Shown here: piece by piece, positions 971-33,395 of the stretch
Position numbering within the stretch: the stretch's first letter is position 1
Layout: every line of letters starts with the position of its first letter
DNA from: Escherichia phage vB_EcoM_RZ
Sequence record: MW598459
Length of the DNA: 64,000 nt
Direction: 5' to 3' (one strand)
Program-made: the position numbers and the translations under genes
Notes under the pieces: generated by a model
What the model saw: only the letters and a program-made list of their open reading frames with translations
The model's database searches: none
Told to the model about the DNA's origin: nothing

Positions 971-2950
971 ATGGCTTTATTATCTCCGGGCATTGAGCTC
1001 AAAGAAACAACGGTCCAAAGCACTGTTGTTCGTAACGCGACGGGTCGTGCGGCGCTGGTTGGTAAATTCCAGTGGGGCCCAGCTTTCCAGGTAACTCAGA
1101 TTACAAACGAAGTTGAACTTGTTGATTTGTTTGGTGGTCCGAATAATGAAACAGCAGATTACTTTATGAGTGGGATGAACTTCCTGCAATATGGTAATGA
1201 CCTCCGTACTGTACGTGTTGTTAACCGTGACGAAGCTAAAAACGCATCCCCGATTGCTGGCAATATTGAAACTACCATTGTAACTGCTGGTACAAACTAT
1301 GCTGTCGGTGATGTTATTCAGGTTAAACACAACCAGACTGTTGTTGAACCAGCTGGCCGTGTGACCAAGGTCGATGTTGATGGTAAAATTCTGGCAATCT
1401 TTATTCCTACCAATAAGATTATTGCATTTGCTAAAACTATTAATCAGTATCCTAATTTGGGCAGTGCATGGACTGCAGAAGTTACGACCACTTCTTCCGG
1501 TGTATCTGGTACCATCACTGTCGGGAAAATTGTTACCGATTCTGGCATTCTGTTGACTGAAGCAGAAAACAGTGAAGAAGCAATTACTTCTCTGGAATTC
1601 CAGGCATCATTGGCAAAATATGCAATGCCGGGTGTTGTTGCTCTTTATCCTGGTGAAATTGGTTCGACTCTTGAAGTTGAAATCGTATCCAAAGCTGAAT
1701 TTGAAAAAGGCGCAACTGCAAATCTGGATATTTTCCCCGGTGGTGGTTCCCGCGCTTCTATAGCTCGTGCAGTGTTTAACTATGGTCCTCAGACCGAAAA
1801 CCAATATGCAATTATCGTTCGCCGCGATGGTGCAATCGTCGAAAACGTTGTTTTGTCTACTAAGCAGGGCGAAAAAGATGTTTATGGTAATAACATTTAC
1901 CTGGATGACTACTTTGCAAAAGGTACTTCCAACTACATCTATGCAACATCTCGCAACTGGCCTGTAGGCTTCAGTGGTATCATCAATCTGTCTGGTGGTA
2001 TTTCTGCAAACGATAAGATTACCGCTGGTGATTTGATGCAAGGTTGGGACCTGTTCGCTGACCGTGAAGCTCTGCATATCAACCTGCTTATCGCTGGTGC
2101 TTGTGCTGGTGAAGGTGATGCGACCGCTTCCACTGTTCAGAAGCACGTAGTTTCTATTGCTGACGAACGTCAGGATTGCTTGGCATTCATTTCCCCGCCG
2201 AAAGGTCTGTTGGTTAACGTTCCTCTGACCCGTGCAGTGGATAACCTGATTGACTGGCGTACAGGTGCTGGTGCATTTGATACTGATAACATGAATATCA
2301 GCACGACTTATGCAGCGATTGATGGCAACTATAAATATCAGTATGATAAATATAACGACGTTAACCGTTGGGTTCCTCTGGCAGCTGATATGGCTGGACT
2401 GTGTGCTCGTACTGATGATGTTTCTCAGCCTTGGATGTCTCCGGCAGGTTATAATCGTGGTCAGATTCTGAACGTTCTGAAATTGGCTGTTGAACCACGT
2501 CAGACCCAACGTGACCGCATGTATCAGGAAGCTATCAACCCGGTTGTTGGTTTCGCAGGTGGTGATGGTTTTGTTCTGTATGGTGATAAGACTGCAACTA
2601 AAGTTCCATCTCCGATGGACCATATCAACGTTCGCCGTCTTACGAATATGCTGAAGAAAAATATCGGTGACGCATCCAAATATAAACTGTTTGAGCTTAA
2701 CGATAACTTCACTCGTGCATCATTCCGTATGGAAACTTCTCAATACTTGGATGGTATTCGTGCGCTCGGTGGCATTTATGAAGGTCGTGTGGTTTGTGAT
2801 ACTACTAACAACACCCCGGCGGTTATTGACCGAAATGAGTTTGTTGCTAGCATTTATTATAAACCTGCCCGCAGTATTAACTATATACAGCTTAATTTCG
2901 TTGCCACTAGCACTGGTGCTGATTTCGATGAGCTGATTGGGCCACAATAA
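971..2950 (+). CDS. 18: Tail sheath protein gp18
   Basis: 659 aa, same length as T4 gp18; N-terminus MALLSPGIELKETTVQS matches T4 gp18; position after gene 17. Confidence 0.95.
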   Translation: MALLSPGIELKETTVQSTVVRNATGRAALVGKFQWGPAFQVTQITNEVELVDLFGGPNNETADYFMSGMNFLQYGNDLRTVRVVNRDEAKNASPIAGNIETTIVTAGTNYAVGDVIQVKHNQTVVEPAGRVTKVDVDGKILAIFIPTNKIIAFAKTINQYPNLGSAWTAEVTTTSSGVSGTITVGKIVTDSGILLTEAENSEEAITSLEFQASLAKYAMPGVVALYPGEIGSTLEVEIVSKAEFEKGATANLDIFPGGGSRASIARAVFNYGPQTENQYAIIVRRDGAIVENVVLSTKQGEKDVYGNNIYLDDYFAKGTSNYIYATSRNWPVGFSGIINLSGGISANDKITAGDLMQGWDLFADREALHINLLIAGACAGEGDATASTVQKHVVSIADERQDCLAFISPPKGLLVNVPLTRAVDNLIDWRTGAGAFDTDNMNISTTYAAIDGNYKYQYDKYNDVNRWVPLAADMAGLCARTDDVSQPWMSPAGYNRGQILNVLKLAVEPRQTQRDRMYQEAINPVVGFAGGDGFVLYGDKTATKVPSPMDHINVRRLTNMLKKNIGDASKYKLFELNDNFTRASFRMETSQYLDGIRALGGIYEGRVVCDTTNNTPAVIDRNEFVASIYYKPARSINYIQLNFVATSTGADFDELIGPQ

Positions 2951-16472: not shown

Positions 16473-16529
16473 ATAAAAAGGCCCCAACCAAAAGGAAGGG
16501 GCAAAACCAAAAATGGTTAACAACACTAG

Positions 16530-16697
16530 CTAAATTAAAAGTTGGGTCTCGTTCAGTTGCTCTTCTGTATTTTCCGTAACTGGCAAACTCTGAACATAAT
16601 TATAACAGGCGCCCGGATGCACCGGACCTTGGTCTGTATCCACAACCAATGCAGAATCGATTGGAGTTTTACAGACAACACAAATCTTATCTGACAT
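16530..16697 (-). CDS. Small Cys-containing protein (55 aa), uvsY.-2 position; possible zinc ribbon
   Basis: Below the 60 aa ORF-track cutoff; hand-translated MSDKICVVCKTPIDSALVVDTDQGPVHPGACYNYVQSLPVTENTEEQLNETQLLI; strong GAGGAG ribosome-binding site; CxxC...HxxxC spacing. Confidence 0.55.
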   Translation of the reverse strand: MSDKICVVCKTPIDSALVVDTDQGPVHPGACYNYVQSLPVTENTEEQLNETQLLI

Positions 16698-31577: not shown

Positions 31578-31946
31578 TTATGCGACTTTAATCCAATTAT
31601 CTAAATTTAATTCACCCTTAGCTTTCATTTTTTCAATCAGAAGGTCTGCAGTGGTGCGACCATTTTGATACCATGTAACATCTTCAGAATAACCAGTTTC
31701 TTCATCTTCATAGGTCTTACAACGAATCTTACCAATAATCAAAGTTTTCAGTTCGTAGGTATCACCAGTAAAAAAGTTTGTTACCATAATTTTCCAAGAG
31801 AAGTCATCAGAAGGACCTTCTGGAGTCATGCAACCTACAAATTCAAACTGCTCTTTATACAAGTGCCATTGCATCTCTTTAGTTTCGATTGCTTTGTAGC
31901 CGTCGTGGTCTTTACCTTTGATGTATGAGTTAAGATTGATTTTCAT
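31578..31946 (-). CDS. Hypothetical protein (122 aa)
   Basis: ORF preceded by the shared promoter-leader cassette. Confidence 0.5.
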   Translation of the reverse strand: MKINLNSYIKGKDHDGYKAIETKEMQWHLYKEQFEFVGCMTPEGPSDDFSWKIMVTNFFTGDTYELKTLIIGKIRCKTYEDEETGYSEDVTWYQNGRTTADLLIEKMKAKGELNLDNWIKVA

Positions 31947-31987
31947 TTTATGCTCCAGTGTTTTATTGTGTAACTCAGTATGAAATC

Positions 31988-32017
31988 ATTATGCACTGGA
32001 CCAACCCTGTTGTAAAC
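31988..32017 (-). promoter_or_regulatory. Early-type promoter (GTTTACA, 17 nt spacer, CATAAT) with conserved leader
   Basis: Near-identical to the cassettes at 10074-10103 and 48868-48897, including the CATACTGAGTTACACAA leader. Confidence 0.55.
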
Positions 32018-32029
32018 CCCTTTATGGAA

Positions 32030-32057
32030 AATAAAAAAGGGACTCCGAAGAGTCCCT
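32030..32057 (-). terminator. Intrinsic terminator (GGGACTC-CGAA-GAGTCCC plus T-run)
   Basis: 7 bp GC stem with tetraloop followed on the minus strand by TTTTTTATTTT; directly after the 53 aa gene. Confidence 0.7.
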
Positions 32058-32061
32058 GAAC

Positions 32062-32223
32062 TTATGCTTTCGGCTTACCAAAGCAAGCTGCATCGGCGCG
32101 CAATACCGCACGAGCACGAGCCTGAAGTTTATCAGTCACCTGATTGATTCGCTTGTTGGACGCACGCTTGTAACCAGCGCGTTTGGAGGAGCCATCAACA
32201 ACTTTAACTTCTTTCTTAGCCAT
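32062..32223 (-). CDS. Small highly basic protein (53 aa)
   Basis: Below the ORF-track cutoff; hand-translated MAKKEVKVVDGSSKRAGYKRASNKRINQVTDKLQARARAVLRADAACFGKPKA; flanked by a strong terminator. Confidence 0.5.
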   Translation of the reverse strand: MAKKEVKVVDGSSKRAGYKRASNKRINQVTDKLQARARAVLRADAACFGKPKA

Positions 32224-32621
32224 ATTAAATTCTCTTTAAAATAGAATGCAGGACTTATTGGCATTGCCTGCGCAAGCCCTCGAAGGGAACATTAGGTTTC
32301 GGATATTTAACGACAGGATAACCATAAACCTCGTCATCATACCTTATAGCTCTTATCTGTTGCACACCGTTAGCTTAAAGGTTCCGGGTTCGATTTCTCG
32401 AGGATAAGATATATACTGATGGATATATAGGCCTTGAGGCGTACTCCCGATTGGCCATCACCTCGGGGTAGCATGCACTTGCCGCTATAAGAATAACATT
32501 CAAGAGGTACACCGTAAAACTGCCGGGGTCTTAAAACTATAATGATTCGCAAATCATTAATCAGACGGTTCGACGGCTCCTCGATTTTCTAGCCGCACTA
32601 AGGTAGCGAATCACCTACAGC
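32224..32621. other. GC-rich ORF-free island (~400 bp), candidate structured non-coding RNA or decayed insertion
   Basis: No ORF of 60 aa or more with a credible start on either strand; a 100 nt stretch (32431-32530) counts 54% GC against an AT-rich genome; contains local hairpins (TAATGATT-CGCA-AATCATTA at 32539-32558; CCCT-CGA-AGGG near 32277-32287). Confidence 0.4.
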
Positions 32622-32876
32622 TTACTTCAGGGTTACGACAAAATGGCGAACAGCTTTACGGGCAGCAGATGCCAGCGGCTTAGCAAATTTCAGTTCATCT
32701 TTTGCTTCGAGCACTGCGCGAAGGTCGGTTTGAACCGGGTTAAGATGTTTGAAATACTGCAGAATTTCCAGTGCTTCGGCTTCAACATCAATAGATGCGC
32801 CGTAGTTTTCGTGACCGTTATTCCATGCAGTGCGTTGCAGTTCGAGAGCGTGTTGTAATTGTTTGTTTAAAGACAT
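32622..32876 (-). CDS. rIII: Putative rIII lysis-inhibition accessory protein
   Basis: 84 aa from the ATG at 32876 with GAGG ribosome-binding site; position immediately downstream of gene 31 as in T4; the TTG start at 32945 in the ORF track is less likely. Confidence 0.6.
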   Translation of the reverse strand: MSLNKQLQHALELQRTAWNNGHENYGASIDVEAEALEILQYFKHLNPVQTDLRAVLEAKDELKFAKPLASAARKAVRHFVVTLK

Positions 32877-33030
32877 TTTAGAAGCCTCAATATGAAGTGA
32901 ATATTTGGTGGACACGTTCTTCTGAATTTCACTTCCTTTCGGCAAGTCTCTCAGTTGTAGTCCACCGTTTAGGATTGGCTAACCCCATACACCAGCAAAG
33001 CTCTGTATGACATCAACCAATCCATATTAT

Positions 33031-33038
33031 TATTTATA
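33031..33038 (-). promoter_or_regulatory. T4-type late promoter TATAAATA upstream of rIII
   Basis: Exact TATAAATA on the minus strand between gene 31 and rIII. Confidence 0.45.
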
Positions 33039-33047
33039 ACGCTAATT

Positions 33048-33395
33048 TTACTTATAAAGACAAGGAACAGCTTTATAATGACAAGTCACAAATTTCTGCT
33101 TAACTTCTTTAGCCTGCTTAAGTCCCAGTGCAACCAGAGGATGTGGAACGTTTGCAATCTTGCCAACCGGAAGAGGAGTCAAATCACCTACTTCGCAGAA
33201 TCCTTCAGGAACATCCGGACCAACCGAAAATACTTCACACATCTCCGGGATTTCACCCTGATGGAGTTTTCCGATAACGATACCTGATGCCGTAGTTTCT
33301 TCATCACCAGCTTGCTTTGGCTCAGAAACCAAAATAATATATTCACCTACTGCTTTAATTGGTAATTCCATATTTAATCCATGTTGTTTGGTCAT
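33048..33395 (-). CDS. 31: Co-chaperonin gp31 (GroES-like)
   Basis: 115 aa; near-identical to T4 gp31 (LPI.AVGEY.ILVSEP.QAGDEE.T.SG...[20 protein letters not shown]...[30 protein letters not shown]). Confidence 0.92.

Follow-up and report, generated by a model that had tools for sequence, protein, structure and literature searches.

A structured RNA with an uncatalogued core in the rIII-30.9 gap of T4-like phages

Described RNA systems and the rIII-30.9 gap

T4 hides the start sites of genes e, soc and 49 in hairpins, and the leader of its gene 32 contains a pseudoknot. Here we describe a locus that can be compared with these elements, the gap between rIII and a homologue of 30.9 in Escherichia phage vB_EcoM_RZ (sequence record MW598459), located at positions 32224-32621 of the 64,000 nucleotides (nt) that were analysed, hereafter the window. 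We hold with great confidence that the gap encodes a functional structured RNA on the minus strand, and its core domain matches no catalogued RNA family. As in the T4 cases, this is a cis RNA structure directly upstream of a T4-type gene, with the Shine-Dalgarno (SD) sequence paired in a conserved hairpin and with a probable leader pseudoknot. However, the gap RNA exceeds these elements four- to tenfold in length and is modular, its 152-nt junction domain (the core) is without counterpart, it lacks a known repressor protein or alternative promoter, and copies of the core are also found with no gene behind them.

The core also recalls four-way-junction and orphan riboswitch aptamers, with its freely covarying closing helix P1, invariant joining strands, a GNRA loop and an untranslated stretch before a terminator-like hairpin. 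Unlike such aptamers, however, it is not adjacent to an expression platform, is optional within its lineage, matches none of 4227 Rfam models and has a second locus without a regulated gene. Small intergenic phage ribozymes such as hammerhead and twister are similar in location, compact junction and permuted order of elements, but the core is larger and matches neither their sequence nor their structure; the likeness is one of architecture. The T4 RNAs rnaC and rnaD (species 1 and 2) are likewise non-coding, belong to a T-even genome and are co-transcribed with their neighbours, yet they reside at another locus, the tRNA cluster; a proposed kinship was rejected, as the best match there of the covariance model described below (R1) reaches 7 bits.

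The PeSL ('promoter-early stem-loop') cassettes of T4-type genomes, reportedly described by Arbiol, Comeau and Krisch in 2010, resemble the gap modules in being short intergenic cassettes that are shuffled among positions and genomes in plastic regions of T4-type phages. The gap modules, on the other hand, lack an early promoter, and the core is far larger, with compensatory changes on the transcribed strand and G.U pairs exceeding A.C. Finally, as far as its accessible part goes, a 2023 catalogue of viral structured RNAs (PMC10690425) uses the same type of evidence, covariation in intergenic regions of IMG/VR. That part of its text discusses GP20 and GP32 leaders only, with T4-like phages and lysis genes unmentioned, and the catalogue may include this region. 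Our literature search returned no paper describing this RNA.

The core and the modules around it

The core model comprises the following features.

32342-32493, minus strand: core, closed four-way junction of 152 nt, without counterpart in T4
32484-32491 with 32343-32350, minus strand: P1, closing helix of 8 pairs, covarying at all 8
32440-32471, minus strand: P2, with a bulged A and a small tip
32410-32429, minus strand: P3, hairpin
32403-32409 with 32351-32357, minus strand: P4, stacking on P1 and enclosing P5 and P6
32390-32401, minus strand: P5, GNRA hairpin with a GAAA loop
32364-32389, minus strand: P6, short helix enclosing a loop
32359-32374, minus strand: invariant block GCUAACGGUGUGCAAC, a joining strand

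An alignment of 23 distinct core copies yielded 40 pairs in RNAalifold, 24 of them with compensatory changes, and in the refined model 93.9% of the cells are paired, with 29 of 42 pairs changing on both sides. None of 500 shuffles reached any of five measures, and sliding the partners by 1-3 columns gave a pairing of 27-44%. The covariance model R1 (154 positions, 42 pairs), built from this alignment, found the window copy over its full length as the sole match in the window (32341-32494, minus strand, 182.4 bits, E = 1.6e-45), and the other core members scored 98-183 bits. Realignment of 33 distinct copies to R1 resulted in 95.2% paired cells and 34 of 42 compensated pairs, in an alignment that, being fitted to R1, leans towards the model. 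In a divergent 98-bit member of this alignment (locus L214), a G-C to A-U exchange is found in P6. The joining strands of the core, GGCAAGKGCAUG, CCUNNNGGCCUAU and GCUAACGGUGUGCAAC, are near-invariant.

The helices of the 33 sequences contain 53 G.U cells versus 13 A.C cells, and the P5 loop reads GAAA or GUAA in 25 of the 33. Since G.U exceeds A.C and the P5 loop is of GNRA type on that strand, the RNA strand is the minus strand. Two further helices, pairing 5' UGCAUG with 3' UGUGCA and GGCAAG with the CUUG tail of module C, were unsupported, the sequences being invariant or their changes uncompensated in Cronus, EcS1 and L214.

A search of the whole window with Rfam 15 at gathering thresholds, a check that the sequence-only reading had proposed, gave no match. 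Relaxing the limit to E up to 10 for positions 31900-33100 returned chance matches outside the gap only, and seven divergent homologous loci searched at E up to 1 yielded nothing on the core. This blank does not refute a structured RNA, since conserved structure is abundant in related phages. A tRNA-like element, prompted by GGTTCGATT on the plus strand, was also considered and rejected; ARAGORN detected no tRNA or tmRNA genes in the window, the motif being the P5 GNRA hairpin as read on the complementary strand.

Side-by-side comparison of genera resolves the gap into a mosaic of seven recurring RNA units, namely B, X, the core, A, C, T and an SD hairpin, the order of which varies between lineages. 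Helices across the gap are supported by compensatory base changes on the transcribed minus strand, which sustains the structured non-coding RNA that the sequence-only reading had listed among its candidates. The units outside the core are as follows.

32589-32615, minus strand: module B, hairpin of 4-5 base pairs (bp) with a 9-nt loop, UCGC[UACCUUAGU]GCGG
32496-32585, minus strand: module X, elongated hairpin domain common to T4 and RB69
32540-32559, minus strand: tip of module X, UAAUGAUU-UGCG-AAUCAUUA
32295-32341, minus strand: module A, hairpin GACGAGG/CCUGUC with a bulged G, in every gap examined including that of T4
32273-32290, minus strand: module C, hairpin GUUCCC-UUCGA-GGGCUUG with a compensated stem
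32248-32272, minus strand: module T, terminator-like hairpin GCAGG...CCUGC followed by a U-rich tract
32229-32247, minus strand: SD hairpin AUUCU-AUUUUAAAG-AGAAU, sequestering the 30.9 SD sequence

The arms of module B covary between phages (UCAC/GUGA, UCGC/GCGG, UUGC/GCAG and AAGC/GCUA). For module X, RNAalifold predicts 25 pairs, 5 with compensatory changes, as in CCGU/ACGG to CCAU/AUGG and CUGUC/GACAG to UUGUC/GACAA. Its tip corresponds to the hairpin TAATGATT-CGCA-AATCATTA, offered earlier as an example of short hairpins rich in G and C; the hairpin exists, but at 32540-32559 rather than 32539-32558, and its stem is rich in A and T. The tip loop is UGCG or UACG, a UNCG tetraloop on the minus strand only, and in locus L208 the tip reads UAUCGAUU-UACG-AAUCGGUA, the pairs being kept despite the changes.

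The GGUU loop of module A probably pairs with a downstream AACC, as judged from the sequences, generating an H-type pseudoknot with an A-rich third loop. Pairing holds for 79% of cells in the module A alignment (A3), where 8-9 of 20 sequences show double-sided changes at the two basal pairs of stem 1. Covariation extends to stem 2 (GGUU/AACC, UAGU/ACUA and GUGAG/CUCAC), which is the less secure of the two, its register being different from clade to clade. The stem of module C is compensated as CCC/GGG, GCC/GGC and CCUC/GAGG, with a freely varying loop, and the module lies on the 5' side of the core in EcS1 and PS49, and on its 3' side in the other cases.

In all genera, module T and the SD hairpin keep a constant spacing to the 30.9 start, and their arms covary. 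In other genera the place of module T is taken by wholly different stems, GGGAGC...GCUCCC, GAACUGG...CCAGUUC or GCUCUAUG...CAUAGAGC, always paired and then followed by a U-rich run, AUUCUAUUUU or AUGUAUUUCU. The hairpin and the U-rich run after it are conserved, and a consensus terminator scan left module T uncalled, its loop being too long. Equivalents of the SD hairpin are UCUCC...GGAAGA in other genera and CCUC...GAGG in Cronus, where pairing is kept and the sequences differ. A long regulatory leader, another of the candidates raised beforehand, gains support from this arrangement, the last 45 nt forming a conserved SD-sequestering hairpin behind a terminator-like one. In a distant T4-like phage (locus L229), 30.9 abuts rIII and no such RNA is present.

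Further variants were noted among the modules. In the last ~100 nt before 30.9 of loci L002, L005 and L029 (Klebsiella, Enterobacter and Citrobacter phages), module T has grown to a ~75-nt domain with several GAAA loops, GGGAGC-CUACAACCGAAAGAACUGUCGAAAGAAGUUGAA...-GCUCCC. RB69-type phages carry a different module of ~50 nt (CACGCGUCAGAAAAAGGUUAUCUGUCUAAGUCGUG) at the core site, found at ~1118-1168 (minus strand) of L004 and in L191 and L208, and a near-copy lies inside the module T hairpin of locus L205; this module and its near-copy are further evidence of RNA-module shuffling. In L214, a sub-threshold Rfam match to the ribosomal S15 leader on the C/T/SD part (2008-2115, plus strand, 20.5 bits, E = 0.59) is probably due to chance.

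Distribution, locus and transcription

The gap is matched in 997 phage records, 406 of which contain the core insert, with hosts spanning Escherichia, Shigella, Klebsiella, Enterobacter, Citrobacter, Yersinia, Salmonella, Serratia, Erwinia, Edwardsiella and one Aeromonas isolate. It measures 204-437 bp across genera and is present in all Tevenvirinae-type phages examined; more distant T4-like phages lack such a region. In IMG/VR, 20 of 50 rIII loci hold the core. T4, T2, RB69 and S16 are without it, and R1 found nothing in T4, RB69 and S16, but other Tequatroviruses possess a copy 100% identical to that of the window. The earlier statement that T4 has no comparable non-coding gap is wrong, as T4 has 244 bp between rIII and 30.9, which are ~91% identical to the window over the common parts, with ~158 bp of extra insert in the window.

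Core copies from Klebsiella, Citrobacter and Edwardsiella phages are 93-95% identical to that of the window, compared to 62-77% for the coding sequences of rIII, 30.9 and gp31, and the gap region is under strong purifying selection. The notion of a decayed inserted element, the third earlier candidate, finds no support as far as decay goes: a reading frame cannot be rebuilt, and the sequence is better conserved than the genes on either side. The core is nonetheless an insert relative to T4 and behaves as a portable module.

A second location is found in the Slopekvirus-like phages K41P2 and JC221 and in two IMG/VR contigs (L041 and L044), which harbour diverged core copies of 117-125 bits, rich in compensatory changes. 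These are placed in a convergent gap between uvsY.-2 and uvsW.1, before a convergent terminator and without a gene downstream. Hairpin C accompanies the core there, as does B in JC221. Patterns based on rIII retrieved none of the Slopekvirus-type contigs. The diverged core copies at the uvsY.-2/uvsW.1 gap, each accompanied by C, are:

L031 793-950, plus strand: core, with C
L009 985-1145, minus strand: core, with C
L041 917-1076, plus strand: core, with C
L044 9219-9378, plus strand: core, with C

K41P2 and JC221 also have ~150 nt of further conserved non-coding sequence in common, 3' of the core; their uvsY-uvsW block is inverted relative to T4, and Slopekvirus-type genomes are rearranged. 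A second core copy near uvsY/uvsW was sought in the window and not found, the gap there being ~60 nt. This uvsY.-2/uvsW.1 gap (16480-16540) contains a hairpin flanked by T/A runs (GCCCCTTCCTTTTGGTTGGGGC), which by its sequence looks like a bidirectional terminator.

Outside these phages, the sequence was not found in E. coli genomes, a bacterial species collection gave two pattern matches only, both rejected by the covariance model, a loose core pattern produced chance matches only in IMG/VR, and metagenomes returned near-identical T4-like contigs only.

Among sequence records, the window is closest to pEC-M719-6WT.2, with 99% identity across 2 kb, and to the SP18/VR7 group, SP18 being classified as Gaprivervirus, Tevenvirinae. 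The genes on the minus strand run in the order gp31, rIII, gap, gp30.9 homologue and intrinsic terminator.

33048-33395, minus strand: gp31
32622-32876, minus strand: rIII, lysis-inhibition accessory protein, 100% identical to the annotated rIII of pEC-M719-6WT.2
32224-32621, minus strand transcribed: gap, 398 bases between the rIII stop codon and the 30.9 start
32062-32223, minus strand: gp30.9 homologue of 53 amino acids, rich in Lys and Arg, matching phrog_1427 (E = 2.9e-26) and annotated as gp30.9 in SP18 and VR7
32038-32057, minus strand: strong intrinsic terminator closing the transcription unit after 30.9, with an 8-bp stem including 5 G-C pairs, then UUUUUUAUUUU

The gp30.9 homologue has no match in Pfam, NCBIfam and PDB searches. 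The sequence-only reading was right that no credible open reading frame (ORF) exists between rIII and this small basic-protein gene: five ORFs of 34-60 amino acids that overlap the gap match nothing in Pfam or PHROG, and no frame, on either strand, is free of stops in any of the 23 homologous core sequences. Its description of a GC-rich island was overstated. Positions 32431-32530 indeed have a G+C content (GC) of exactly 54.0%, in the top 1.1% of 100-nt windows of the sequence, but the whole gap amounts to 43.7%, against a window mean of 40.8%, and is no GC-richer than its neighbours, as rIII and 30.9 reach 45.5% and 49.4%.

The gap carries no annotation in the T4 reference record. GenBank records matching 32224-32621 (among them MZ170040.1, ON720975.1, OR539221.1 and PP496997.1) annotate small ORFs on the RNA, and those of pEC-M719-6WT.2 are WMU95679.1 and WMU95680.1. 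The overlying ORFs are labelled 'hypothetical protein', or in several records '1,4-alpha-glucan (glycogen) branching enzyme, GH-13-type'. Such annotations are almost certainly spurious.

None of the gaps scanned revealed a sigma-70, late (TATAAATA) or MotA-box promoter, and a PeSL cassette was rejected for lack of a promoter-like site inside the gap. In the consensus scan, the only strong terminator of the unit is that after 30.9. From the arrangement of these signals, the gap RNA appears to be transcribed together with rIII and 30.9 as one RNA. It should be made throughout infection, since early, middle and late promoters drive rIII in T4 (PMC9409239). Between gp31 and rIII, a second non-coding region of ~170 nt (32877-33047) is associated with one sigma-70-like site (33058-33029, minus strand) and probably holds proximal rIII promoter(s) of the kind mentioned for T4 in PMC9409239. 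Past the 30.9 terminator (31947-32061), two or three sigma-70-like sites (minus strand, 32016-31988 and 31974-31945) ahead of a 30.8 homologue mark a new transcription unit.

Candidate roles of the gap RNA

Post-transcriptional control of the rIII-30.9 transcript, by a cis-acting element with an accessory binding domain, is the explanation that we favour, with a probability that we would place a little above even. The gap RNA folds into a row of modules that each fold on their own, a structure that we regard as solid. Module T and the SD hairpin would represent a cis-acting gate on gp30.9 synthesis, where module T gives partial termination and the SD hairpin occludes the 30.9 ribosome-binding site. 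Such a gate, the chances of which we judge to be about evenly balanced, is suggested because module T and the SD hairpin are invariantly placed next to the 30.9 start.

Within the core, the variable P1 would close a four-way junction with near-invariant joining strands, through which a conserved partner, protein or small ligand, would most likely be bound, and the bound core may then modulate the fate of its own transcript through stability, processing or read-through. The core has the appearance of an autonomous binding domain because of the closed P1, the invariant junction strands, and the tolerated loss and relocation. Congruent with autonomy, P1 covaries at all 8 pairs while the enclosed sequence is conserved, and the core can apparently be lost (T4) or moved to another transcript (Slopekvirus-like phages) with the rest undisturbed. 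That it is a partner-binding domain acting in cis is, nevertheless, a tentative proposal, somewhat short of an even chance.

Several observations weigh against the favoured explanation. As no gene follows the core at the second locus, its function in general cannot lie solely in acting in cis on a start codon downstream. Moreover, the module order is permuted between genera, which is unusual for an aptamer coupled to an expression platform, and module T is a weak terminator by consensus rules. Additionally, gp30.9 displays no recognisable RNA-binding fold in PHROG, Pfam, NCBIfam and PDB searches. Thermodynamic stability does not stand out either (z of -0.15 for the gap as a whole and of -1.2 for its core), although we judge these z-scores to be uninformative.

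The core and hairpin C could instead constitute a new functional RNA class, which might act as a ribozyme, sense a small molecule or an immune signal, or serve as a decoy that diverts a conserved protein of the host or of a defence system. It would be a portable RNA 'gene' exchanged by enterobacterial T4-like phages into the 3' regions of different operons. We consider this possible but doubtful.

It is also rather unlikely, yet worth weighing, that the RNA acts in trans, with the core, B and C cut from the operon transcript and accumulating as a stable species that would titrate, as a sponge or decoy, either a conserved factor of the host or a protein of anti-phage defence; the genes alongside would be incidental. 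The same unit of core and C at two unrelated positions 3' of genes, one without a downstream gene, hints at such a role, as do the patchy, accessory-like presence in close relatives (T4 without the core, other Tequatroviruses with a 100% identical copy) and a conservation far above that of the flanking proteins, as expected for a conserved enterobacterial target. The core however has no promoter of its own, and there is no sign of processing sites or of a stable species. Its absence from host genomes means that it is not an obvious mimic of a host RNA, and likeness to RNase P RNA is at chance level. For the latter, the common 10-mer GUGCAACAGA, which we take from the textbook structure to be helical (P11) in M1 RNA and which is unpaired or part of P4 in the core, did no better than shuffled sequences (p 0.04-0.27), and several other short identities to M1 RNA were likewise at chance level.

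A small-molecule riboswitch, in which ligand occupancy of the core decides between termination at T and formation of the SD hairpin, is an improbable alternative. The core does present a conserved fold with covariation, a closed P1, near-invariant junction strands and variable peripheral loops, and is positioned upstream of terminator-like and SD-sequestering hairpins. But an aptamer in the leader of a regulated gene, overlapping its expression platform, was not found, because the Slopekvirus-type copies have no downstream gene and modules A and C part the core from T in the window. The module order varies, P1 and T do not overlap, 60% of the genomes that keep T and the SD hairpin do without the core, the second locus lacks a regulated gene, and no Rfam riboswitch model matches.

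Known small ribozymes such as hammerhead and twister occur in phage intergenic regions as compact multi-helix junctions with invariant joining strands, including permuted forms. The core shares these features along with permuted module order, and by analogy could be a self-cleaving ribozyme, or a dedicated processing site, parting the rIII and 30.9 cistrons. We nevertheless regard this as very improbable: no Rfam 15 ribozyme model matches, 152 nt is large for a small nucleolytic ribozyme, and no cleavage site is marked in the sequence.

One or more decayed genes, or the ORFs of 34-60 amino acids annotated as hypothetical proteins in some GenBank records, would explain why such frames exist, and one frame across module A yields superficially similar peptides in several phages. 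This reading is effectively refuted. Stops interrupt all six frames of all homologues, the ORFs match neither Pfam nor PHROG, and the frame across A is interrupted in EcS1, shifted twice in T4 and devoid of start codon and SD signal. Substitutions in the helices compensate one another in pairs instead of being synonymous, and nucleotide conservation is above that of the real genes alongside. A related candidate, an intron-like insert in a small ORF, was prompted by the peptides YDDEVYGYP..., VIRYLSAARK and VPFEGLR, which appear in permuted order in the window, T4 and Klebsiella phages. This split-gene idea was rejected because hairpins A, B and C, which carry compensatory changes, account for the peptides, and because neither T4 nor EcS1 keeps the frames intact. 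A group I intron was discarded as well, in light of no Rfam match (RF00028) and the same explanation of the apparent 'exon' peptides by these hairpins.

T4-type genomes shuffle short intergenic cassettes (PeSL), and the core is an insertion/deletion polymorphism that has moved between loci; yet a DNA-level element (replication origin, recombination hotspot or mobile-element scar) with inverted repeats acting as DNA has a negligible probability. The helices tolerate G.U and not A.C (53 versus 13), and the loops are of GNRA or UNCG type on no strand but the transcribed one. Apart from P1, the element lacks terminal repeats, whether inverted or direct, and neither an endonuclease nor a transposase accompanies it. 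Each genome has a single copy, and bacterial genomes contain nothing like it.

Although few viruses have been studied as thoroughly as T4 and its relatives, this locus represents a previously uncharacterised structured RNA. It adds a well-supported orphan RNA family in a genetically easy model, with a core that is optional, mobile and above the neighbouring proteins in conservation, and it offers a concrete hypothesis for the control of the basic protein gp30.9. A natural experiment is moreover available, as T4 lacks the core and near-identical Tequatroviruses carry it. Whichever function the core has, annotation pipelines should stop calling genes in the gap. If binding to a factor of the host or of a defence system, or catalysis, were demonstrated for the core, it would become a new tool and open a new chapter of RNA biology between phage and host, and should it prove to be a portable RNA, a model phage family would carry an unrecognised RNA-based accessory function.

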